Source: Escherichia phage nieznany
Reading direction: 5' to 3' (one strand)
Length of the DNA stretch: 64,000 nucleotides
Sequence record: NC_052659.1
The translations under genes were made by a program, and so were the position numbers. The notes below the pieces were generated by a model, which saw only the letters and a program-made list of their open reading frames with translations, did no database searches and was not told the origin of the DNA. Numbering within the stretch: position 1 is the stretch's first letter; each line of letters starts with the position of its first letter. This document shows positions 1,293-51,079 of this stretch, in pieces.

Positions 1293-1593
1293 GAAACCGA
1301 AAAACGAGGTTCTCAAAGTAGCCAAATCAGTTCCTAAGAAAGATAAATTTGATACGGAGGCATTCGTCTTTGACACACCAATCGAGAAGATTGAAGAAGC
1401 GTTGCAACGTCTTGAGGAGCAGGAGGCAGATCCAATGGCTGAACCACTCACGCAGGATCAACTCTACTGGTGGGGATGGTGGGAATTGCACATGCCAGAT
1501 GCAAAAAGACGTGGCATGACTACAGTTCCAATCTGTGCGAAAGAGTCTGCGGTATTGGGACTTTATGAGAAACCGAGAGGCAGGAAGAAATGA
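1246..1593 (+). CDS. hypothetical lysine-rich protein (GTG start)
   Basis: GGAGG at 1236-1240 then GTG 1246; basic N-terminus. Confidence 0.4.
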   Translation: MAKTPKKLSKPKDVTKKPKNEVLKVAKSVPKKDKFDTEAFVFDTPIEKIEEALQRLEEQEADPMAEPLTQDQLYWWGWWELHMPDAKRRGMTTVPICAKESAVLGLYEKPRGRKK

Positions 1594-2261
1594 GGCTAGT
1601 TCATGGCATAGGTATAAATGATGCAGATCATAGAATAACCGTAAATGAGACGATAGGTGGCAAATTAAAACAAACTTGGATTTGTCCTTACTACTCAACT
1701 TGGAAAGGTATTTTAATGCGCACAAAAGAATCATTTTGGTTAAAGAATCCTACCTATCATGGGTGTAAAATAAATAAAGACTGGTTAAGATTTTCTAACT
1801 TCGAAACCTGGCTAAAGGAACAACCTAGCCATGCCGAGTGGTTAGCCAATCCTAAAGATTGGGCTGTGGATAAAGATTTTGTATTTCCTGGAAATAAGAC
1901 TTATTCCGCAGAAACTTGTTGCCTTTTGCCGCGCTATGTGAATAATGCACTCTTAGATAGTTCCTCTATTCGTGGAGAGTATCCGCTTGGTGTTTCTTAT
2001 CACAAGCAACATAAAAAATTATACAGCTCTATAAAGATAGAGGGTAAACAACATTTCCTTGGCTTACATTCTGATACTAAAGAAGCTCATAAGGCTTGGC
2101 AAGTAGCTAAGATAGACGCGCTGAAAGGTATCCTTACAAGATACAGAAAGGAGAATCATTATGATAATCGTATTTGTCTAAGATTGTTGGATGAAATTTA
2201 CTTAATTGAAGAGGATGTTAAGAATGCAAGAGAAACAAAAAGGTTTGGTCGTATGGCTTGA
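1590..2261 (+). CDS. putative homing endonuclease (AP2-like DNA-binding domain), paralog of 16883..17539
   Basis: Shares WLRFSNFETW / AWFTFSNFDNW and KQHFLGLHSDTKEAHKAW / GKHLGYFATEEEAHFAW motifs with the nrdA-nrdB intergenic ORF. Confidence 0.5.
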   Translation: MRLVHGIGINDADHRITVNETIGGKLKQTWICPYYSTWKGILMRTKESFWLKNPTYHGCKINKDWLRFSNFETWLKEQPSHAEWLANPKDWAVDKDFVFPGNKTYSAETCCLLPRYVNNALLDSSSIRGEYPLGVSYHKQHKKLYSSIKIEGKQHFLGLHSDTKEAHKAWQVAKIDALKGILTRYRKENHYDNRICLRLLDEIYLIEEDVKNARETKRFGRMA

Positions 2262-2586
2262 CGATTTACGTGATCCTAAAGACTACGGCTACCCAGAGGC
2301 TATCTGGGTTAAATCAGCACAAGAGATCTGGAGTTTGTATATGACGCTTCAGGTGAAGAGCATGACGAATGAAGTGACTGAAATTCACTTTGACAATGAC
2401 CTCGGCCCTGGGTACGATGGATATTATGTATTCACCAGACTGGAGAGCATGATTGCTGCTGGAGGTTTTAAAGGTTTGCAGAGTATCTATGTGCATACAT
2501 CCAATCCGGCGGCTGCACAGAAATTCATGCTGGCAAAAGAGCATCTTGCTCGTTACGGTATTGAACTGATTCGTAAACACTATTAA
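2224..2586 (+). CDS. hypothetical protein
   Basis: ATG 2224 with GAGGA upstream; 120 aa. Confidence 0.4.
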   Translation: MQEKQKGLVVWLDDLRDPKDYGYPEAIWVKSAQEIWSLYMTLQVKSMTNEVTEIHFDNDLGPGYDGYYVFTRLESMIAAGGFKGLQSIYVHTSNPAAAQKFMLAKEHLARYGIELIRKHY

Positions 2587-2597
2587 GGAGAGAAAAC

Positions 2598-2813
2598 ATG
2601 AAAATCAAAGATCTGCCAGTAGGCACTAAGTACAAACTAGCTCAAGCCCCACGTATGGATACGACCAGTACGTTTATCGTCGTGGATATTAAGTACATGC
2701 AGGATACTTTCGGCATCCTTGAAGATGAAGTTGGTATGAGCTATTGTATTGACAAGAACGAAATCGTTCCGTGGCGAGGTCACGAACTTTGTGAATGCAT
2801 CATTGTAGAGTAA
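2598..2813 (+). CDS. hypothetical protein
   Basis: AGGAGAG RBS; 71 aa. Confidence 0.4.
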   Translation: MKIKDLPVGTKYKLAQAPRMDTTSTFIVVDIKYMQDTFGILEDEVGMSYCIDKNEIVPWRGHELCECIIVE

Positions 2814-2829
2814 AACAGAAGGGGGGGCT

Positions 2830-2961
2830 ATGTACGTTATCTGGGTAGATGAAGGTGATGGGTGGTATATCTATAAAGAAACAGGCCATTGGCCTGATGT
2901 GCAGAAAGCCCTTGACAGTTTCGATTATTGTTACTATGATTCACACTTTGAAGACGAATAG
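2830..2961 (+). CDS. small hypothetical protein (43 aa, below ORF-track cutoff)
   Basis: GGGGGG RBS then ATG 2830; in-frame to TAG 2959-2961. Confidence 0.3.
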   Translation: MYVIWVDEGDGWYIYKETGHWPDVQKALDSFDYCYYDSHFEDE

Positions 2962-2975
2962 ACAGGAGAAATAAC

Positions 2976-3143
2976 ATGTGGAATAAACCCGCACAAGGTC
3001 AACTTCCTTACCCACATCAGGTGGTGATTGCCATCACACCAGAAGGAAAAGAAGTAGAGATGTATCGTGTCGGTAATCTTTGGTTCCCTGCTGGGGACAG
3101 ATGTTATGTCTACTGGACACCTGAAATGTGGAGGGCTAAGTGA
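2976..3143 (+). CDS. small hypothetical protein (55 aa)
   Basis: AGGAGAAATAAC then ATG 2976; stop TGA 3141-3143. Confidence 0.3.
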   Translation: MWNKPAQGQLPYPHQVVIAITPEGKEVEMYRVGNLWFPAGDRCYVYWTPEMWRAK

Positions 3144-3490
3144 AGGATAATATTTGCTACCAACATCTCTATTGGATTCATGACGAAGAGACTTACGCTC
3201 AACGTGTTATCGTATGTGCGGCTAATAAATACATCCTGACAACTGGGGAAGAACTGGTCGTACCTTGTGTCAGACACGCAAATCCGGTATTATCCCAGCA
3301 GATAAAACTTCTAATGGACGCTGGTTTGTTGTCTAAGTCCTATTGTCATCCAGATGATCAAGGGTTTATTGACCAATATTATAATTGGTGGAATCGTGTA
3401 GATGCATTTATTATTGCAGATCATGCTAATCAAATTGATTATGACAGAAATGGTCATTATCGTGAGTTATTTAGTGAGGGGCTATATTAA
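3140..3490 (+). CDS. hypothetical protein
   Basis: 116 aa ORF, GTGA overlap with upstream. Confidence 0.4.
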   Translation: MKDNICYQHLYWIHDEETYAQRVIVCAANKYILTTGEELVVPCVRHANPVLSQQIKLLMDAGLLSKSYCHPDDQGFIDQYYNWWNRVDAFIIADHANQIDYDRNGHYRELFSEGLY

Positions 3491-3984
3491 TGAGAGATAT
3501 TCTTACAGAACTTGGAGTAAACCACTGTAGTCATAAGCTTGAAGATGACTGGTTAGATTTTTATGCTATTAATTACGCTCAAGCACGTAAGAGCTTTAGT
3601 GAAGCTTTATCTCATGTTCAAGAGTTATTTAATGTAAAAGAAGATAAGGTATTGGCTAAAACATACACAATCAGTTCTTATGATTACACTAACCCTGAGT
3701 TTATGTTAAAATTTTGGAGAGATGTTAATCAGTTCATTAAAGAAAATACATCAAAGGACTGGAGTTTTTCCTATATTACTATTGAAGATACTGAAAAATT
3801 CCTAGACCAATATGATGATTTTGGTGAAGATTGTAAAGAAATTAGCGTTTATGCTTATGTTAAAAGCTTTGACCAGTTTACATCACAAGAGCAAAAAGAT
3901 GCAATCAATACAATGAGGTATTATGAGATGAAGCTGAAAGAAGCAAAAGAAGATTTAGATCGCTATAAAAGGGTGGCATATTAA
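3490..3984 (+). CDS. hypothetical protein
   Basis: 164 aa ORF; TAATG overlap. Confidence 0.45.
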   Translation: MRDILTELGVNHCSHKLEDDWLDFYAINYAQARKSFSEALSHVQELFNVKEDKVLAKTYTISSYDYTNPEFMLKFWRDVNQFIKENTSKDWSFSYITIEDTEKFLDQYDDFGEDCKEISVYAYVKSFDQFTSQEQKDAINTMRYYEMKLKEAKEDLDRYKRVAY

Positions 3985-4538
3985 TGTTTGTGACGAGTGA
4001 CCGCCATTTCTGGCACGATAAAGTTCTTGATTTTCAGGCGCATACCCGCCCATTTTCTAGCTTGGAAGAAATGCACGAGGCGTATATTAAAGAGTGGAAC
4101 GCCTGTGCAACTAAACCTGGTGTTAAAATGTATCACTTGGGAGATTTCAGTTTTGGTCTTGAAGAACAGACAGAAGAGATCTGCAAGCGTTTGCAAGGTG
4201 ATATCACCTTCATCGTGGGGAACCATGACCGCAGCTATACCCGTTCCGTAATGGAGAAGTACGGGCGTGTTGTTTGGTACGACGAAGTGAAATACCAGAA
4301 ACATTTCTTTGTATTGAGTCATTATCCTATGCTTACTTGGAACAAATCTCATAAAGGAAGTATTATGCTTCATGGTCATGAACATGGGAATCTTGTTCAT
4401 TTAGAGCACGAACGTGGAAAAACTATGGATGTTGGTGTAGATGTTCATGGTCGTTTCTTACATTTTGATGAAATCATTGAAGTGATGAAAGACCGTCCTA
4501 TGCGTATGGATCATCGTAAATTTAGATCGGAGGAATAA
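3984..4538 (+). CDS. calcineurin-like metallophosphoesterase
   Basis: Motifs DRHFWHD, GNHD, GHEH typical of metallophosphatase fold. Confidence 0.6.
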   Translation: MFVTSDRHFWHDKVLDFQAHTRPFSSLEEMHEAYIKEWNACATKPGVKMYHLGDFSFGLEEQTEEICKRLQGDITFIVGNHDRSYTRSVMEKYGRVVWYDEVKYQKHFFVLSHYPMLTWNKSHKGSIMLHGHEHGNLVHLEHERGKTMDVGVDVHGRFLHFDEIIEVMKDRPMRMDHRKFRSEE

Positions 4539-4680
4539 TAATGGTAACAATGTATGTACTGTTTGCAATTTTTTATTCTGGTAATGGTAATTCAACTTAT
4601 CAGGCAGAGTTTAACTCGCAAGGGGCTTGCATTATGGCGTTAGAGGAAGGTAAGCGTGTGAAGATTTTTGACCGTGGCAT

Positions 4681-4944
4681 GTGTGTGCCGAAGGGGTGAA
4701 AATGAATATTCCAGATGATTTTTATACCCACGAGAACTCGTGGAGAAAGGCTCTTGAACGTCTTATCGAACTGGAGCCTGTAACTGGTGAACCTGACGAA
4801 GATAACCGTGGGTTTTGGGAACATGAATTACGTGCATTCAATCACGCTTATGAGCAACTTCATAAGGGTTGTCCCCATGATGGTGCTACCTACTATGATA
4901 TGAGTGGGCGTGAACGCTGTGGAATGTGTGGAGGTGATATTTGA
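4681..4944 (+). CDS. hypothetical protein (C-terminal CxxC)
   Basis: 87 aa ORF. Confidence 0.35.
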   Translation: MCAEGVKMNIPDDFYTHENSWRKALERLIELEPVTGEPDEDNRGFWEHELRAFNHAYEQLHKGCPHDGATYYDMSGRERCGMCGGDI

Positions 4945-5126
4945 GAAAACTTATTGTACCATGGCTCTATTGCCCTTGTGGGAGCAGTAAGATTGAAGTA
5001 GAGACTGAAAAAGGTGATGAGTTATACCTCTATTATGGCGACAAAGTGAAATGCCTTGTTTGCGGAAATGAAGGTGAAATCGAAACAGATGATTGCTGCG
5101 CGTATGCAGTGTGGGAGGATGAATGA
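4941..5126 (+). CDS. small zinc-ribbon-like protein
   Basis: CPCG...CLVCG cysteine pairs; 61 aa. Confidence 0.35.
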   Translation: MRKLIVPWLYCPCGSSKIEVETEKGDELYLYYGDKVKCLVCGNEGEIETDDCCAYAVWEDE

Positions 5127-5347
5127 GTACAGCTATTTATGTAAGAGGCGTGAGTGAACACGAGCAATGTCTTTTCTCTTTTGGGGAAGGTGTAGAGATT
5201 GAGGATATGTATCAAGAGATTTGCGAAGTCTTGGATAATGAAGGATTCACTATTGTAAACTCTTTTCTTGTTACATCATCTGAATATTTAGAGGTTGATT
5301 TAACACAGATGATGTTTAGTGTCCAAGAAACAGTTTTTGATTGGTAA
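5123..5347 (+). CDS. hypothetical protein
   Basis: 74 aa ORF with ATGA overlap. Confidence 0.35.
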   Translation: MSTAIYVRGVSEHEQCLFSFGEGVEIEDMYQEICEVLDNEGFTIVNSFLVTSSEYLEVDLTQMMFSVQETVFDW

Positions 5348-5356
5348 GGAGAAATA

Positions 5357-14627: not shown

Positions 14628-16871
14628 TTGATTCGTTTTGTAACTAAATCTAATGGTAAGACAGAGGAGTTTAATCCAGAAAAACTTCGCAAGTGGTCTG
14701 AATTTGCAGCAGGTAAACTAAACTGGTCTGAAATTGAATTAGAAGCTGTGAAGCGGTGTTATGACGGTGTGTCTACACGTGATCTGCATAAAGCAATGAT
14801 TGCAGCGTGTATTGACAAGAAAACACAAGCTTATAGTGATATGGCAGGAAGACTTCTTCTGGGTATGATTTACAAACAGGCTCATGGGGGATACCACAGT
14901 ATCCCTTCACTGAATACCTTTTATCATGATATGGTAGAACGTGGACATTGGGCTAAAATGGATTATACTGATGAAGAGATCAAAGAAATCGGTAAGATTG
15001 TAAAGCATAATAAAAATCTAACTTATGGTTATTCTGTTTTACGTCAGATGGTAGATAAATATCTTATTCGAGATGCAGTAAACGATGTGGTGCATGAGTC
15101 TCCACAATTTCTTTTCATTGGTATCGCAATGAAGGTTATGGAGATCCAACCAAAAGAACGCCGTATAGAAGATATTAAAAAACTTTATACTTATGTTAGC
15201 GATCTTAAGATTAATCTGCCATCGCCGTATCTGACAACTCTACGAACTCCAATCAAAGGAAGTGCGTCTTGTTGTTTATTCCGTGCAGACGATACGGCAG
15301 AGTCTTTAGCCATTGCTAATTACTTAGCTCATGAGTATACGTTGAATAACGCAGGTATTGGTGTTAATCTTCAAACTCGTGCCACAGGTCAAGGTGTTAA
15401 GAATAATCGTATTATTCATGGTGGTCTTCTTCCGTATCTGAAATGGATGGAAGATAGTGTTGGAGCTTCGAAGCAAGCAAGCCGTGGAGGTAGTGCTACA
15501 GTTACCTTCACCATACTTGAACCAGACTTCGACGATCTGATTCGACTGAAGAATCCAACAACACCTATAGATAAACGAGTAGACAAACTGGATTATTCTA
15601 TTGTTGTTAACCGTTCGTTCTTGCGTCGAGCAGCAAAAAACGAAGATTGGATGTTAGTTAGTTGTGATGATGCTCCTGAACTTTATGAAGCTTTGTATAA
15701 AAGTGAAGAAGAGTTTGATGCAGTTTATGACAAAGTAAGCCGTCGTCGCATTAAGAAAAAATTTGTTAAGGCTCGTGATCTTCTGACAGAGATTATTGTT
15801 CAACGTGCAGAAACAGGACGTATTTACATGTTCTTTGCTGACAACGTTAACAACCATACACCTTTCTTGGATACGGTGTATCAATCAAACCTGTGTCAAG
15901 AGATCTTCTTACCAACTAAAGCTTTCCACAGTATGCCGGATCTCTTTACTGGTGAGAATACAGAAGATCAAGAATTGGCTTTATGCTTCTTATCTTCTAT
16001 TGTTGCTGGTCGTGTCTTACCTGAAGAATATGAGGATGTTGCATACTACACTGTATTGACAATTGACAACGTTATTGAAACAATGGATTATCCATTTAAA
16101 CATAACGAAATAACTGCTAAAGCACGTAGATCTATTGGTGTAGGTATTACAAACTTAGCGCATTATTTGGCAAGTAATTTTGTAAATTATTCAGATGCTT
16201 ATGCTAAAAAATTAATGCATGAACTTGCAGAACGTCATTACTTTTGGTTGGCAAAAGCCTCTCTGCGTCTGGCTAAGGAAAAAGGTAATGCGGAATGGAT
16301 CGATAAGACCAAATGGCCTCAAGGTTGGCTACCAATTGACACTTATGCTAAAACAGTAGATAGTATCGGTAATTTTGATCTTAAAATGGACTGGGAAGGC
16401 TTACGTGCTGAAATCATTGAACAAGGTGGTATCCGTAACAGTGTCTTGGCTGCTATTGCACCTAATGAGTCCAGCAGTTTGGTAAGCAATACTACTAACT
16501 CTCTGTACCCTGTTCGTGATACTATTATGTATAAACAAAGTCAGAAAGGTAGCGTATTATTTATTGTTCCAGACTACGAAAAACTGAAAATGTTTTACCA
16601 GTCTGCCTGGGATACTCCGGCTAAAGATCTTGCAGAAATGTATGGTATCTTTACCAAATTCACGGACCAAGGAATTTCTTGTGATTCTTGGCTAGATTAT
16701 TCTAAATTGGTAGGTGGACGTTTATCAGTGAAAGCTGAGATGCAGTTTATTCTGAATTTTGCTAGATTGGGTGGCAAGTCGTTGTATTACCTTAATAGTA
16801 GAACAAAATCAGCAGATTCTTTAGCACAAGAAGATTCTGAAGACGAAGGGTGTAGTGCCTGTAAAATGTAG
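14628..16871 (+). CDS. nrdA: ribonucleoside-diphosphate reductase large subunit (class Ia NrdA), TTG start
   Basis: 747 aa; N-terminal ATP-cone-like region and overall NrdA architecture; GGGAGGAG RBS. Confidence 0.9.
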   Translation: MIRFVTKSNGKTEEFNPEKLRKWSEFAAGKLNWSEIELEAVKRCYDGVSTRDLHKAMIAACIDKKTQAYSDMAGRLLLGMIYKQAHGGYHSIPSLNTFYHDMVERGHWAKMDYTDEEIKEIGKIVKHNKNLTYGYSVLRQMVDKYLIRDAVNDVVHESPQFLFIGIAMKVMEIQPKERRIEDIKKLYTYVSDLKINLPSPYLTTLRTPIKGSASCCLFRADDTAESLAIANYLAHEYTLNNAGIGVNLQTRATGQGVKNNRIIHGGLLPYLKWMEDSVGASKQASRGGSATVTFTILEPDFDDLIRLKNPTTPIDKRVDKLDYSIVVNRSFLRRAAKNEDWMLVSCDDAPELYEALYKSEEEFDAVYDKVSRRRIKKKFVKARDLLTEIIVQRAETGRIYMFFADNVNNHTPFLDTVYQSNLCQEIFLPTKAFHSMPDLFTGENTEDQELALCFLSSIVAGRVLPEEYEDVAYYTVLTIDNVIETMDYPFKHNEITAKARRSIGVGITNLAHYLASNFVNYSDAYAKKLMHELAERHYFWLAKASLRLAKEKGNAEWIDKTKWPQGWLPIDTYAKTVDSIGNFDLKMDWEGLRAEIIEQGGIRNSVLAAIAPNESSSLVSNTTNSLYPVRDTIMYKQSQKGSVLFIVPDYEKLKMFYQSAWDTPAKDLAEMYGIFTKFTDQGISCDSWLDYSKLVGGRLSVKAEMQFILNFARLGGKSLYYLNSRTKSADSLAQEDSEDEGCSACKM

Positions 16872-16882
16872 TAGGAGAACAG

Positions 16883-17539
16883 ATGAAGAAGGGTAAACGT
16901 AAAGTTACCGTTCTCACAGAGAGGGGAGAAATCCCCTTGATTGTGGATGTTGAACGTAGATTGTGGGAAGGTGGTGTTATCAATGGAAAAAGGGTTAATA
17001 CATTCATAGATCCTTCCTATGCAGCTTGGAAAGGCATGTTTAATCGTGCATATCGTATGGAAAACATTAGACCAGGTTATAAAGATGTTACCGTGTGTGA
17101 TGCTTGGTTCACCTTTTCAAACTTTGATAACTGGTATCAAGAACATAACGTGGAAGGCTTTGTTTTAGATAAAGATCTTGTTCTTGAAGGAAATACTGTT
17201 TACTGTCCTGAATATTGTAGGTTTGTTCCTCCTTACATAAATACACTTTTAAGTTATGCTAAGAGGTATGAAAGAAAATACTTACTAGGAGCACATGTTA
17301 GGAAAGATGGTAAGATTTATGCCAAAGCTTCTGGGAGCAAAGGTAAGCATTTAGGTTACTTCGCTACAGAGGAAGAGGCACACTTCGCTTGGCTAAAGGA
17401 TAAAGCTAAGTCAATCAGGGAAACAGCGGATCGTTACAAAGAGGAAGAACATTTTTATCAAGAGGTGTACAACACTCTTGTAAACAAGGCGGATTTCTAT
17501 TGGCATCTGGCTGAAACAAAAACAGTGTTTCGAGGCTAA
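16883..17539 (+). CDS. homing endonuclease-like protein inserted between nrdA and nrdB (AP2-like domain)
   Basis: Paralog of 1590..2261; position equals that of mobE in T4 (established knowledge). Confidence 0.55.
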   Translation: MKKGKRKVTVLTERGEIPLIVDVERRLWEGGVINGKRVNTFIDPSYAAWKGMFNRAYRMENIRPGYKDVTVCDAWFTFSNFDNWYQEHNVEGFVLDKDLVLEGNTVYCPEYCRFVPPYINTLLSYAKRYERKYLLGAHVRKDGKIYAKASGSKGKHLGYFATEEEAHFAWLKDKAKSIRETADRYKEEEHFYQEVYNTLVNKADFYWHLAETKTVFRG

Positions 17540-38175: not shown

Positions 38176-38625
38176 TCATGATTGAGTTCCTTTTTGTTTT
38201 TCAATAGCTGCACGAATTTCTGCTAAAGGTTCTGCTACCAAGTCTTCAACTTCTTGGATTTGTTCATTCATCACATCACGAACCATTTGAATACGCTCTT
38301 CAAGGGAAACAGCAAGTTCATCTGCATAAGCCATATTAAGAACGTGGTAGAAATTTTCTTGTGCACTTAAAGCACCAGATAACAAATAATCCTGATCTTC
38401 CTCTGGTAAAAGCATGTGTTGCTCATATTCAGCAAAAGTGTTTTTGTTAATCTCAAGCAAAGCACCCATCATAACATCATACTGATAATCTTTATGACCA
38501 GGATTGTTTAAAATAATATCTTCAAAGATATTAAGAAGAATCTTAGTAACAAAAGCATTGTTTTCGGCACCTTCCATCTGACGGATTACCGTGATTACTT
38601 CTTTTTCTTTAGCGTTTTGGCTCAT
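38176..38625 (-). CDS. hypothetical protein
   Basis: 149 aa ORF. Confidence 0.45.
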   Translation of the reverse strand: MSQNAKEKEVITVIRQMEGAENNAFVTKILLNIFEDIILNNPGHKDYQYDVMMGALLEINKNTFAEYEQHMLLPEEDQDYLLSGALSAQENFYHVLNMAYADELAVSLEERIQMVRDVMNEQIQEVEDLVAEPLAEIRAAIEKQKGTQS

Positions 38626-38815
38626 AGTGTTTCTCCTCTGATTCTATTTCGATATAGCCTGTGGTTTTGCACGGGTTACACTCGTAAATTTGACCTACAT
38701 CCGCCATAACATATCCTGCACCACCACAATAGGGGCAAGGCATAGGAGGACAAGGTATGGACGTAGTGATTGTTACGACATTATCAATTTCCAACATTTT
38801 CGCCATTATTACCAT
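38609..38815 (-). CDS. small zinc-ribbon protein
   Basis: CPPMPCPYCGG...CNPCK. Confidence 0.35.
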   Translation of the reverse strand: MVIMAKMLEIDNVVTITTSIPCPPMPCPYCGGAGYVMADVGQIYECNPCKTTGYIEIESEEKHYEPKR

Positions 38816-39616: not shown

Positions 39617-39826
39617 TCAATATAGATCTAATGTTAGACTAACAGTTATCCAACAAACAATAGCAGTCCATATAACAAGTAATGATCTACAAACTACATC
39701 CCATTCGAATACATTGTATGTTAACCATTCTCCCATCACAACACAAGAACCTAACCAACATCCGACAATAACTATAATCCAATAAAAGAATCCTACAGTA
39801 GAGTATACAGCAAAAGCTTTTAACAT
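39617..39826 (-). CDS. small membrane protein
   Basis: GGAGGAAAG then ATG; hydrophobic with Trp-rich TM segments. Confidence 0.4.
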   Translation of the reverse strand: MLKAFAVYSTVGFFYWIIVIVGCWLGSCVVMGEWLTYNVFEWDVVCRSLLVIWTAIVCWITVSLTLDLY

Positions 39827-40053
39827 CTTTCCTCCAGAAGTTGTTCAACAGTTTGACGAGTATGATTGTCCCAGTAAACCTTAGTGAAGTCAAGAGTTCC
39901 TTGTTCGTTTCTCTTAGTTTCGAAGAAGTATCCGCCTTCTCTTTCTACTCTGTCTCTAATGTGCTCTATGAGGTGCTTTTTACAAGATGCTGATAAACAA
40001 TAGTCATACTCCCCACGAAGTAACGCTATAGCTGCAAGTCTGTTATCACCAAC

Positions 40054-40239
40054 TTAAGATATTGTCCAAGAAAGCATACTACCTTCTATACCTAAAGGTG
40101 TTTGTCGAATGGAATATCCACCATGCCGACTGATAGAAATTATGGCAAGTGGTTCTCCTGTTAGAGATCTTCCTAATGCACCTTCTGTTGGACTTCCTTC
40201 AACAATACGTTTGAAAAAAGCTTTGATCTTACCTAACAT
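40054..40239 (-). CDS. hypothetical protein (followed in-frame, after one TAA, by a 77-codon start-less open frame 39823..40053)
   Basis: AGGGGGA then ATG 40239. Confidence 0.4.
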   Translation of the reverse strand: MLGKIKAFFKRIVEGSPTEGALGRSLTGEPLAIISISRHGGYSIRQTPLGIEGSMLSWTIS

Positions 40240-40256
40240 AAGTCCCCCTTAAAAAC

Positions 40257-41852: not shown

Positions 41853-42217
41853 TATTCTGCCTCATCATAGAAGAAATCCAACTCTTGTTCCAGTTGTTTA
41901 ACTCGATCCTTAACCCACTGTACACGTTTTTCATTAAACATGCAACGTTTTTCCTTACACTCTTGCTCAAAAGATTTTGCTGTGTTAAATGGGAAAGTTG
42001 TATCTAAGCCAGCGTTTTCAAAACTGGCTAATTGCATACCATAAACAGAATATGCTAAAGAATGATCGGCTCGAAATTCATCACTTATATACATACGTAG
42101 ACCTCGGCATAAGCCAACATCAGCGTAACCACTTTCTCGTGGAAAGAGACGGAGGTGTTCTAACCAATTATTATAGAAATCTAAAAGAATCCTTTTACAC
42201 TTCAAATCAATTGTCAT
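41852..42217 (-). CDS. hypothetical protein, paralog family member (RVQWVKDRV)
   Basis: AAGGAG then ATG 42217. Confidence 0.45.
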   Translation of the reverse strand: MTIDLKCKRILLDFYNNWLEHLRLFPRESGYADVGLCRGLRMYISDEFRADHSLAYSVYGMQLASFENAGLDTTFPFNTAKSFEQECKEKRCMFNEKRVQWVKDRVKQLEQELDFFYDEAE

Positions 42218-42617
42218 AAAAAGTTTCTCCTTCGTCGAACAAGTTGGCAAGATTGTTCACGGCAATCTGCGTGGAAAGAAGACAACTGTTTGCAGACACA
42301 TAAGCACGAGCTATTTTGTAAACATAGGCTTTCGTATTACAATTGTCCAGGATCGGAAGACTTTCGTCGATAGCATCTATAACACTAAACATCACATCTA
42401 AAACTTTAATGGTGAGTGTTGTATTTGTATCTTCGTAACCTTTTTCAATCCGACCTGAATAGAAAGCATAGTCCTCAACAGTTCGTCGTTTAAACTGCCG
42501 CATAAAATCGGAACCATCTGTAGCAGAATTGAACAAATTTTCAAAAAATACGTCCCATCCGGCAAAAAGGGCTGACAGCATGATTAAGTGATCTACAGAT
42601 TCATTTTCTTGTTTCAT
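42207..42617 (-). CDS. hypothetical protein
   Basis: 136 aa ORF. Confidence 0.45.
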   Translation of the reverse strand: MKQENESVDHLIMLSALFAGWDVFFENLFNSATDGSDFMRQFKRRTVEDYAFYSGRIEKGYEDTNTTLTIKVLDVMFSVIDAIDESLPILDNCNTKAYVYKIARAYVSANSCLLSTQIAVNNLANLFDEGETFYDN

Positions 42618-43914: not shown

Positions 43915-44214
43915 TTAGTTATGTAAACCCAAATGTGCTACAACTTCTCTACGATAAGATAACTGCATAGCAATTTTATAGCCAGGATGAAAACCATTTA
44001 CATCAATGTCATCAAACCAAACCTCAAACGAACCGTGCTTAAGAGTCATTAAGTTGATATACCATTCGATAATATAATGATCGTCAGCAATACCTTCGAT
44101 GTAAAATTCTCGGCAACAGTGAGATAGGTCTTCACTTGTTTCACGTTTCCAGTCCTTGATAGCACCTTTCTCTTTGGCTTCATTCAAAATTTTGATCAGG
44201 TCTTCAACTTGCAT
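43915..44214 (-). CDS. hypothetical protein
   Basis: 99 aa ORF. Confidence 0.4.
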   Translation of the reverse strand: MQVEDLIKILNEAKEKGAIKDWKRETSEDLSHCCREFYIEGIADDHYIIEWYINLMTLKHGSFEVWFDDIDVNGFHPGYKIAMQLSYRREVVAHLGLHN

Positions 44215-44267
44215 ATCTATCTCCTTTGTGGTTAATCTTTATATTTTAAATATTGTACCGTCTTCTA

Positions 44268-44681
44268 TCAAATAGCCTCTTTCTCTAAAACAACTCTTTG
44301 GATCACAACATCTTCAATGTTTGCCAAACAATGACCCAAAGTCAATCCTGCCTTGAAAGGTGCTTGTAGTTTGGACTCGGCTTCTACGCGAATAGAATGT
44401 TCCGCTCCACACATCGTGTAATCTACACGGTAAACGTTTAAACCTAAGAACATAGATTCTTCTTCCTCACAACAAGGATTGAGTTCAGCCCATTCCCAAG
44501 CATCTCCTTCTAAAGCAAATGGAGTGTTGTAATTGAAGAAAGTGCAGCGCGGATACTCCCCGTTGAAAGAATCTTTCAACAAGATATATTTCTTACCGTT
44601 TGCGTGGAAGAGTTCTCCTTTGATAACCTTGCCTACAAGGATATCACTGTTAGTAGAACGGGTGCAGATAAACTTTTTCAT
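44268..44681 (-). CDS. hypothetical protein
   Basis: 137 aa ORF. Confidence 0.45.
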   Translation of the reverse strand: MKKFICTRSTNSDILVGKVIKGELFHANGKKYILLKDSFNGEYPRCTFFNYNTPFALEGDAWEWAELNPCCEEEESMFLGLNVYRVDYTMCGAEHSIRVEAESKLQAPFKAGLTLGHCLANIEDVVIQRVVLEKEAI

Positions 44682-44743
44682 GATTTTCTCCTCTTTGTTT
44701 TGATGAGATGATTATGACAAAGACAGATCCTTCTGTCAACGAT

Positions 44744-44965
44744 TTATTTCCACTCGCCTTGATGTTCTTTGATCTCGTAAGAGTAGTATTCGAACATGCT
44801 CATACAAACCACACCTGCCATTTCTAAACAAAGAGGTTTGTCATTATAGAAGGCACTTACTGCTCTTCCTGCTTTATGTGCTGCTTCTTCGGAATCACAA
44901 CCGCAAACGTTATGCACCCAAGGATCAGGGCCATCATATTTAAGACGTACAATCCACATGATCAT
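44744..44965 (-). CDS. hypothetical protein
   Basis: ATGA overlap with upstream gene. Confidence 0.35.
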   Translation of the reverse strand: MIMWIVRLKYDGPDPWVHNVCGCDSEEAAHKAGRAVSAFYNDKPLCLEMAGVVCMSMFEYYSYEIKEHQGEWK

Positions 44966-45189
44966 TCTTCCATCTCGAACCATTCAGGGAACACTTTGTG
45001 GAAGACACGTGTTGTTTCTAAGAGAAATTCCAACTCTTTTTCCAAATCTGCGTTCCAACCGTTTATTTTAACACGGATTGCCAATGCACTTGCACGGCGA
45101 CTCAATTCTTGACAGATTGGATCACGCAGAACTATTGAGTCATAAAACTGACAAACAGCCTCAAGTTCATACCAGTTATAATCCGACAT
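44962..45189 (-). CDS. hypothetical protein
   Basis: 75 aa ORF. Confidence 0.4.
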   Translation of the reverse strand: MSDYNWYELEAVCQFYDSIVLRDPICQELSRRASALAIRVKINGWNADLEKELEFLLETTRVFHKVFPEWFEMEE

Positions 45190-45515
45190 TATTCATCCTC
45201 CTCTGCAATACGATCTCTTACCCAATTAATCCTGTCCACGTTCAGGTGACATACCTTTGCATCTGATTCTAAGACATATGCATCGTAGTTCTCATTGAAA
45301 GGGAGTTCTTGACTCAACCCTTTGTGGTAAAACTGTGCGTGCATTTCATCTGACAAGGTTGTTATAATGGGGTTGTAATTACCTCTGTGCACATAATCGA
45401 ACAAGTTGGCACACAAACCACAATCCCGCCGAAAAGGTTTACCATCAGGAGCACCAACATCAATCCATGCTAGATAAATTTTATAAAACTCCATCAAATC
45501 TTTACTTGTTTTCAT
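45189..45515 (-). CDS. hypothetical protein, paralog family member (RINWVRDRI)
   Basis: 108 aa ORF. Confidence 0.45.
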   Translation of the reverse strand: MKTSKDLMEFYKIYLAWIDVGAPDGKPFRRDCGLCANLFDYVHRGNYNPIITTLSDEMHAQFYHKGLSQELPFNENYDAYVLESDAKVCHLNVDRINWVRDRIAEEDE

Positions 45516-45859
45516 TATTTTACCTCGATCACGTTGATAAATACATCTTCACGACAATCTTTATCGTCCCCGTAGATTTGACCTAATCGTACACATGCGT
45601 TAAAGGCGGATTTTGCGGGAATTTGATATTTACGGACAGGACCATTGTCTTTTGTGTAGGAAACCTCAAAGAGACGAATAGTGTCATCCTCAATTACATG
45701 AAACCGACCACAATCCATAATCAAAGAGATACACAGGGTATCCCCTTCTTCGTCTGTAATATAAAACAAACCTGGATTATCTATAACTTGGGAAGCTAGA
45801 TACTGCTTACCCTCTTTAAGGAACTCGACAGAAGACTCTGCACATAAAAGTTTAATCAT
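45515..45859 (-). CDS. hypothetical protein
   Basis: 114 aa ORF. Confidence 0.45.
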   Translation of the reverse strand: MIKLLCAESSVEFLKEGKQYLASQVIDNPGLFYITDEEGDTLCISLIMDCGRFHVIEDDTIRLFEVSYTKDNGPVRKYQIPAKSAFNACVRLGQIYGDDKDCREDVFINVIEVK

Positions 45860-45920
45860 TTTTCTCTCCTTATCTGTGTTGATAATGTATGTATACCATA
45901 CATAAAAGAAATGTCAAAGT

Positions 45921-46121
45921 TTATCGACACAGATAGTTGTAACGATCCGCTTTATCCTCTGCTTCAGCAAAGTCAGCAATCAAGGAAGTTTTGAGTTCTT
46001 CCAACTCTTTCACCCAAGAGTCGTAATCGTTCTGTGTTTCTCCAATAGTTTGGAGAAAACAATCGTCGTAGCCAATAGACATGGCTAACTCGATAATACG
46101 TTCCAGTTTTTCTTCCATCAC
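45921..46121 (-). CDS. hypothetical protein
   Basis: 66 aa ORF. Confidence 0.35.
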   Translation of the reverse strand: MMEEKLERIIELAMSIGYDDCFLQTIGETQNDYDSWVKELEELKTSLIADFAEAEDKADRYNYLCR

Positions 46122-46480
46122 TTCTCTCCTTCTACAGACTTCTGTTTAACATAAAAGTAAGCACCACGAGCAAGATACAAATCATGTTCAATATCGCTCA
46201 CAGGAAAACCATCTGGATTTTTAAAACCGTCTTCTACAGCCAAAATGAGAGATCGTAAACTGATAGCTAACAACTCCATTTGATCTTGTAGTTTTCTATT
46301 TTCTGCATAAAGGTTTTTGCATTTTTGTTCTGCATTTTTCCATTGTTCTAATGCATGATCATAGTTTCGCATAAGGATAGCTTTTTCTTGTTCACGTTTA
46401 AAAGTTTCTTCACAAATGAAACCTGTGCCTAAACCAGTTTCTTCATCTTTGACAAACACTTCAACAAAATCTTTAGACAT
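46118..46480 (-). CDS. hypothetical protein (coiled-coil-like)
   Basis: AGGAG then ATG 46480. Confidence 0.4.
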   Translation of the reverse strand: MSKDFVEVFVKDEETGLGTGFICEETFKREQEKAILMRNYDHALEQWKNAEQKCKNLYAENRKLQDQMELLAISLRSLILAVEDGFKNPDGFPVSDIEHDLYLARGAYFYVKQKSVEGEK

Positions 46481-46481
46481 A

Positions 46482-46745
46482 TTATCTCCTATTTGCTTTT
46501 GGATACTCCCAACCTTCTGGGAGATCTTCTTTACACATCCACTCAAAAGGCCAGCGACAATAACTATGCCACTTTCCATCGAGATATAAGCAATCTTCAT
46601 CCACTGGTCCACAAGGATTGATAACTACAACACACCCTTTTGCTCGCCAATATTGAACTATTTCGGGGTAAAAACAAGAAACGTCGGTCCACTCCCAGAT
46701 ACGTTCATCATTCAAACGATATGCTGCTGGCAATGTTTCTTCCAT
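46482..46745 (-). CDS. hypothetical protein
   Basis: 87 aa ORF. Confidence 0.4.
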   Translation of the reverse strand: MEETLPAAYRLNDERIWEWTDVSCFYPEIVQYWRAKGCVVVINPCGPVDEDCLYLDGKWHSYCRWPFEWMCKEDLPEGWEYPKANRR

Positions 46746-49813: not shown

Positions 49814-50047
49814 TTATAACGCTTCATAGATTGAGTAGATCCGGTTTGCCAGGTCATTACGAAAGCGGAATTTTTCATCACGTTTGATCATCAGATCCTT
49901 AAAACCATATTCTTTCAATGCTTCATTAACTTTATGGCGGCAAACGTTCATATTATCCTGCGCGTCACCAATAAACTTATTACTGTGATGCATTGCTTTG
50001 ATCTCTTCCTCTAATACCAGGGCAACTACTGCGATCATCTTTTTCAT
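49814..50047 (-). CDS. hypothetical small protein (PeSL-array gene)
   Basis: ORF preceded by stem-loop and promoter cassette. Confidence 0.4.
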   Translation of the reverse strand: MKKMIAVVALVLEEEIKAMHHSNKFIGDAQDNMNVCRHKVNEALKEYGFKDLMIKRDEKFRFRNDLANRIYSIYEAL

Positions 50048-50101
50048 GCGTCTATCCTCTTCCTATTGCGTTTAATGGGGCGTTACCGCCCCGCTTATGG
50101 T

Positions 50102-50338
50102 TTATTGATTGATGTTATGATGAAAGTTATTTTCTTCAATAGCTTTTAAAATAAAAGCCGTGATCGCTTTCGTGTCTACTTGTTCGAACGTATCAGAATA
50201 AGCCCAATAATAATCATCCCCTACTTTCGGCGGGTAAACCTGGACAAGGAGATCGCCACCTGGTTGATCTATAAGCTCAACATGCAAGCCGGATGATTCA
50301 GCGGTTTTAACGGCGTTTAATACTGTTGCAATACTCAT
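50102..50338 (-). CDS. hypothetical small protein
   Basis: 78 aa ORF. Confidence 0.4.
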   Translation of the reverse strand: MSIATVLNAVKTAESSGLHVELIDQPGGDLLVQVYPPKVGDDYYWAYSDTFEQVDTKAITAFILKAIEENNFHHNINQ

Positions 50339-50382
50339 AATCTTTTCCTTTCTGATGTGGGGCGTTGCCGCCCCTTTGTTGA

Positions 50383-50682
50383 TTAGATCGCTGTTTCCAG
50401 TAGTTCGGCTAACGTCTTACCGCCTGATAGTTGGTCTAACGTTTGCTCTTCTGGCAAGAAATTAGCTGATATTAAACCGACTTGATTCCCTTTGTGCCAG
50501 TTAGCCTGGCGGATGATTCCATCCTTTAAGGATTTTACCGCCATTGTGCAACCGTCGCCAAATGATTCATTTTTATGGTCCATCACTTCATAAGCGCCCA
50601 GTTTGCTGCTGTTAGGCACCATTAACGCGAACACATCACCAACAACCAGTTTTTCTACGGTAACAATAGCGATAGTTTCCAT
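50383..50682 (-). CDS. hypothetical small protein
   Basis: 99 aa ORF. Confidence 0.4.
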   Translation of the reverse strand: METIAIVTVEKLVVGDVFALMVPNSSKLGAYEVMDHKNESFGDGCTMAVKSLKDGIIRQANWHKGNQVGLISANFLPEEQTLDQLSGGKTLAELLETAI

Positions 50683-50758
50683 TTTATTTTCCTCATTATC
50701 GGCGGCACCATTGCCGCCCTACAAGATACATATTACCAGACTAAGCCGACTTGTCAAA

Positions 50759-50869
50759 CTATTTTTTCTTTTTCTTTGCTTCCAACCGTCTAAGGTTACG
50801 GCTGGACTTATTACGCAAGGCGCTCAGATCGTCGTACCCTTTCCATGCTTGCATATCTTTCGGATTCAT
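50759..50869 (-). CDS. small basic peptide (36 aa)
   Basis: AGGGGGTAAC then ATG; manual translation. Confidence 0.25.
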   Translation of the reverse strand: MNPKDMQAWKGYDDLSALRNKSSRNLRRLEAKKKKK

Positions 50870-50878
50870 GTTACCCCC

Positions 50879-51079
50879 TTACTTGTTAGCCGGATCATAT
50901 ACCAGGACCGCGCCACTTGCTTTCACGCTTTCCGCTTCATAGTTGCGCAAATCGTTTTCTGTAAGATTGAGCGCGATCACTTCCTCGATCTCGATACCAG
51001 TGGCAAGGGCGATCTCTTTGATAATGTCTGCTATTTTCATGGTGTGTACCTTATAAGATGATTGATAAGATAGTGACAA
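50879..51079 (-). CDS. hypothetical small protein
   Basis: 66 aa ORF. Confidence 0.4.
   Translation of the reverse strand: MSLSYQSSYKVHTMKIADIIKEIALATGIEIEEVIALNLTENDLRNYEAESVKASGAVLVYDPANK

Follow-up and report, generated by a model that had tools for sequence, protein, structure and literature searches.

A private ochre codon probably disrupts a conserved accessory gene in the phAPEC8-like Escherichia phage nieznany

The DNA analysed here is a 64,000-nucleotide stretch of the genome of Escherichia phage nieznany (NC_052659.1), referred to below as the window. On its minus strand, a 61-codon open reading frame at 40054..40239 begins with an ATG at 40239..40237 and ends with a TAA at 40056..40054. 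A Shine-Dalgarno-like sequence, AAGGGGGA, lies at 40243..40250 on the same strand, 3 nt upstream of this ATG; both the frame and this element were read directly from the strand. Past the TAA, whose context in the message is UAA-G, the frame continues through 77 sense codons (40053..39823, minus strand) until a second TAA at 39822..39820 closes it. None of these 77 codons is ATG, GTG or TTG, and the only near-cognate codons among them are ATA at codons 9 and 29, ATT at codon 32 and CTG at codon 73. The second TAA overlaps the start of the next gene (39617..39826, minus strand), reading ATGTTAA together with its ATG at 39826..39824. This downstream gene encodes a 69-aa hydrophobic, predicted membrane protein of PHROG 24123 (unknown function) and is preceded by its own GGAGG at 39831..39835 (minus strand), 4 nt upstream of its ATG. 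The minus-strand reading agrees in every respect with a preliminary description of the locus, which had given these coordinates, the 77 start-less codons and the overlap of stop and start, and which had offered a nonsense mutation, non-canonical initiation, low-level readthrough and a chance open frame as explanations.

The two pieces, the TAA between them and the closing TAA span 39820..40239 (minus strand), and in related phages this interval is a single gene of 139 codons plus stop. The window region is 95-99.8% identical at the nucleotide level to about 60 phAPEC8-like E. coli myoviruses (Phapecoctavirus, Stephanstirmvirinae), the locally closest being DIJ07P1, EF1-1, REC and ESCO5. A single 420-nt CDS is annotated here in phAPEC8, EF1-1, ESCO5, phAPEC8_ev052, UP17 and 3A1_SA_NWU, and in all six its translation is uninterrupted, with CAA at codon 62. 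The phAPEC8 orthologue, G377_gp208 (YP_007348425.1), aligns colinearly with the window without an indel in the gene; the ESCO5 orthologue is HOR27_gp041. This is the uninterrupted orthologue, predicted at about 138 aa, that the preliminary description had proposed to look for, and the nonsense-mutation option that it had listed first is borne out. In the same region, about 98% identity to the E. coli phapecoctaviruses is also found in records whose names give Campylobacter, Acinetobacter, Pseudomonas or Klebsiella as the host (for example MG065650.1, OP562383.1 and MH252123.1). These host assignments may not be trustworthy, or E. coli may be the source from which the phages were carried over.

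Profile comparisons place both pieces in one protein family. The 61-aa piece matches positions 1-61 of the 139 positions of PHROG 14510 (E = 7.5e-26), the 77-codon piece matches positions 63-139 (E = 2.4e-39), and the intact phAPEC8 orthologue matches positions 1-139 (E = 8.4e-72). In more distant members of the subfamily, single genes align over both halves as well, namely phi92 gp027 and PaulScherrer bas60_0174 (136 aa each), phiWec179 (144 aa) and, in Klebsiella phage KP13-16, a gene of 140 aa. Across 1.84 billion representatives, an exhaustive search with the profile recovered no more than 27 members of the family; the majority are 132-150 aa long and matched end to end. One unbroken frame of about 135-145 codons is expected of a family member, and all relatives examined are uninterrupted, whereas the window copy is broken by TAA at codon 62; its two halves cover the profile, which makes it a disrupted member of PHROG 14510. 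At the level of sequence, these comparisons establish that the two pieces descend from one gene.

The length of the start-less frame would not by itself have justified this conclusion. Mononucleotide shuffles of the window produce a mean of 0.7 start-less open frames of at least 77 codons per 64 kb, and two are observed, so that length alone is not beyond chance and it is homology that makes the frame real. The only longer start-less stop-to-stop frame in the window, 16790..17116 (minus strand), is 109 codons long and likewise lacks ATG, GTG and TTG. Judged not protein-like in translation, it could have arisen by chance, perhaps opposite a plus-strand gene as its antisense, and it may be the other case of non-canonical initiation to which the preliminary description alluded.

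For 39823..40053, a noncoding stretch that is stop-free by luck would fit the shuffling result. A tblastn search with the 77-codon piece finds it in 130 phage records, with identities as low as 33%, and the piece has the strong PHROG match given above. The C-terminal half evolves in relatives with a dN/dS of about 0.05-0.28, which indicates purifying selection; in the comparison with phiWec179 its synonymous sites are saturated. The stop falls within a conserved block, W-x-I-S-Q-V-G-D-N-R, and is followed directly by the GDN motif, which is invariant. The alignment has 30 invariant columns, 22 of them downstream of the stop. Purifying selection on this half in relatives excludes a chance open frame, and the coding signal whose absence would have spoken for one is evident in both conservation and dN/dS.

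The premature stop itself is private to this genome. At position 40056 the coding strand of the window carries T, and the plus strand A. Eight related records were read base by base, and each has C there, with CAA (Gln62) and an uninterrupted 139-codon CDS; the others were assessed with a 36-mer centred on the TAA. Among 50,697 phage records this 36-mer has no exact match; 63 records match it, each with at least one mismatch. The corresponding 36-mer with CAA is found exactly in 53 of the 63, and the remaining ten are one mismatch nearer to the CAA than to the TAA version. Three of these ten were read directly: codon 62 is CAA, a synonymous change lies close by, and the 139-codon CDS is intact. 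Among the matches listed, 53 of 60 are annotated, and in all of these one feature, labelled 'hypothetical protein', covers the 36-mer. A Y-degenerate 29-mer, which accepts either allele, matches a single metagenome contig (OBRO01000001.1, 150.7 kb), which has CAA, and neither allele is matched in IMG/VR or in GTDB genomes. Among 153 billion called genes, none is recorded with exactly this 61-aa product.

Within the gene, EF1-1 and DIJ07P1 each differ from the window at one base only, position 40056. Because the stop is private and the gene is otherwise identical to these two copies, the alignments trace the split to one transition at 40056, from C to T on the coding strand and so from G to A on the plus strand. 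The same identity to the two nearest relatives suggests that the mutation is recent.

Separate expression of the 77 codons would require re-initiation after the TAA or a non-canonical start. The in-frame near-cognates ATA (codons 9 and 29) and ATT (codon 32) offer conceivable starts, and an 80-aa database homologue, P0021, begins with ATG exactly at the equivalent position. Against this, the frame has no in-frame ATG, GTG or TTG, no suitably placed Shine-Dalgarno sequence precedes the ATA and ATT codons, and a start at codon 9 would remove the invariant GDN motif. No close relative examined has two genes here, and P0021, the only candidate for a stand-alone C-terminal half, sits on a 1.2-kb contig that ends 34 nt away, a position that does not allow interpretation. 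A separate product is extremely improbable on this evidence. The non-canonical initiation suggested earlier fails on the same grounds: the two separate genes that it would predict are seen in none of the relatives examined, and both halves belong to one profile.

P0021 is a distant homologue comprising the C-terminal half only, located on L012 1..483 (GCA_013565735.1, contig JACCDR010277974.1, 1190 bp). Its start is equivalent to codon 62, and in-frame stops lie 4 and 10 codons upstream. The residues upstream of its ATG are still family-like (G*RGATV*ISIM, compared with GLRGSIVYHNIIM in KP13-16). With only 34 nt of contig upstream, P0021 may represent a second independent disruption, a genuinely split gene or poor sequence.

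A further question is whether the phage really has T at 40056. If this base were a consensus error or a sub-population variant, codon 62 would be CAA and the gene intact. Such an artefact would agree with the absence of the TAA 36-mer from the 63 related records and with the CAA of the metagenome contig, and since EF1-1 and DIJ07P1 agree with the window at every other base of the gene, one wrong base would suffice. The change is a substitution, however, whereas homopolymer indels are the more usual assembly error. The window differs by about 2% from its relatives overall, so real private SNPs are plentiful. Against DIJ07P1 (OZ035743.1) in particular, the whole window shows about 90-99% identity in mosaic blocks, with numerous private SNPs.

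The quality of the assembly was checked by comparing DIJ07P1 open reading frames of at least 60 aa with the window. Among coding-strand frames of at least 100 aa, the TAA at codon 62 is the sole mid-gene stop; the other flagged frames are short or on the opposite strand. An error-prone assembly was rejected because no second mid-gene stop appears in a confident gene relative to DIJ07P1. As the assembly does not look error-prone, a real mutation at 40056 is favoured over a consensus error, and an artefact is judged unlikely, though it is the alternative that deserves the most weight.

Two other features emerged from the comparison with DIJ07P1. A gene of the 140-codon class at 42198..42617 (minus strand) ends four codons before the end of its DIJ07P1 orthologue, an Arg codon near the C-terminus having become a stop (EGETFYDN*FEV, compared with EGETFYDNRFEV). 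Several stretches of the window, for example about 44060-46500, 49840-50930 and 1570-5350, have no alignment to OZ035743.1, which suggests exchanged or inserted accessory modules.

If the stop is real, its efficiency matters. tRNA-Gln is known to read UAA as a near-cognate codon, and UAA is an efficient terminator in E. coli. The closest relative, DIJ07P1, encodes a tRNA-Gln with anticodon UUG, and the frame downstream of the TAA is intact, so low-level readthrough, possibly through such a phage tRNA, might yield some full-length protein with the wild-type Gln, in amounts sufficient for function. The intact frame is fully accounted for by the recency of the mutation, however, and the stop is not conserved in the relatives, so nothing here is programmed. 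Leaky termination of this kind is quite improbable. The readthrough option of the preliminary description is likewise left without a conserved or programmed signal, the TAA 36-mer being found in none of the 63 records and the metagenome contig carrying CAA.

Programmed readthrough, such as that producing the A1 coat extension of Qbeta, shares with this locus an in-frame stop followed by a long extension that encodes real protein. Stops of this type are usually leaky UGA or UAG codons that are conserved among relatives. The stop here is UAA and is absent from the 63 related records and the metagenome contig. Judged by the alignments, the resemblance is superficial, since the key criterion is a conserved stop and the relatives have a sense codon.

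A stronger form of suppression would have the phage's own tRNA-Gln insert the wild-type Gln at UAA during infection, giving the full 139-aa protein. The window contains no tRNA genes. The DIJ07P1 tRNA cluster (OZ035743.1, 140689..142703) comprises ten tRNAs (Met twice, Arg, Ser, Asn, Thr, Gly, Gln-UUG, Pro and Ile), none with a suppressor anticodon, and the equivalent cluster of phage nieznany lies outside the 64-kb window. The tRNA-Gln gene there could in principle carry a UUA anticodon, in which case the phage would harbour both a nonsense allele and its own suppressor. This is very improbable, more so than leaky reading of the stop.

The explanation that probably holds is an ordinary nonsense allele, in which a private ochre mutation has inactivated a conserved accessory gene in a phAPEC8-like phage. 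The C-to-T change at 40056 would have converted codon 62 of a 139-codon gene from CAA (Gln) to TAA. Translation would begin at the ATG at 40239, which has a good Shine-Dalgarno sequence in front of it, and would end at UAA-G, giving a fragment of 61 residues. The fragment 40054..40239 is thus the sole part of the gene where efficient translation is expected. That the 77 codons are still open and gene-like would reflect nothing more than the young age of the mutation, which has left no time for further decay.

With the truncation, 56% of the protein is lost, and with it the GDN motif and the 22 invariant positions downstream of the stop. Loss of so much of the protein, including its most conserved part, suggests that the allele is most likely null. 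The consequences for the next gene would be small. The now-untranslated 231 nt are C-poor (40 C and 54 G), and together with the GGAGG that the 69-aa gene possesses, this composition suggests that strong polarity on that gene is not to be expected. The overlapping membrane-protein gene is also the next gene in phAPEC8, EF1-1, ESCO5, phi92 and the distant contig L012, where its product is again 69 aa.

The surroundings of the disrupted gene are a run of small genes, all in PHROGs of unknown function. Genes in blocks of this kind are generally dispensable, and the phage would presumably tolerate the loss for this reason. Nearby, 38609..38815 (minus strand) encodes a 68-aa protein with a CxxCxGxG-type zinc-finger motif and weak matches, all below the Pfam cut-offs, to the DnaJ central domain, Anti-TRAP and Lar. 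Relatives call this protein 'DNA ligase' through PHROG 13972. It is far too small for a ligase, and the label looks like a propagated misannotation.

The intact protein matches no Pfam family and no PDB sequence, and among the titles and abstract openings surveyed in the literature, no paper addressing this gene was found. An AlphaFold model built from five sequences is of moderate confidence (best pLDDT 81; 46-67 for the other four models) and predicts the order helix, three strands, helix, two helices, two strands, helix. The label 'potential transcription regulator' attached to phi92 gp027 and PaulScherrer bas60_0174 finds no support in the Pfam, PDB and AlphaFold results, and no recognisable DNA-binding domain was found by sequence or fold.

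A comparison of the window copy with known systems clarifies its nature. It shares with the PHROG 14510 orthologues its genome position, its neighbours and the 139-codon frame; it differs in having TAA for CAA at codon 62, so that the expected product stops at residue 61. The ochre mutants of classical phage genetics, such as those of T4, arise by the same single CAA-to-TAA transition and likewise yield a truncated product while the downstream frame stays intact. The window allele differs from them in occurring in a natural or laboratory isolate, in a presumably non-essential gene, and in not having been selected as a conditional-lethal; no suppressor tRNA is seen in the window or in DIJ07P1. 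The window copy is a disrupted member of an already known, uncharacterised phage protein family, and the mechanism is of the most ordinary kind.

An annotation that treats the locus as a single disrupted member of the phAPEC8 gp208 / phi92 gp027 family, whether called pseudogene or nonsense allele, is preferable to one with a 61-aa gene followed by an unexplained open frame, and to one that invokes recoding or non-canonical initiation. If the base at 40056 is real, a conserved Stephanstirmvirinae gene is naturally knocked out in this isolate, which would provide a small but usable hint that the gene is dispensable under the conditions of isolation.
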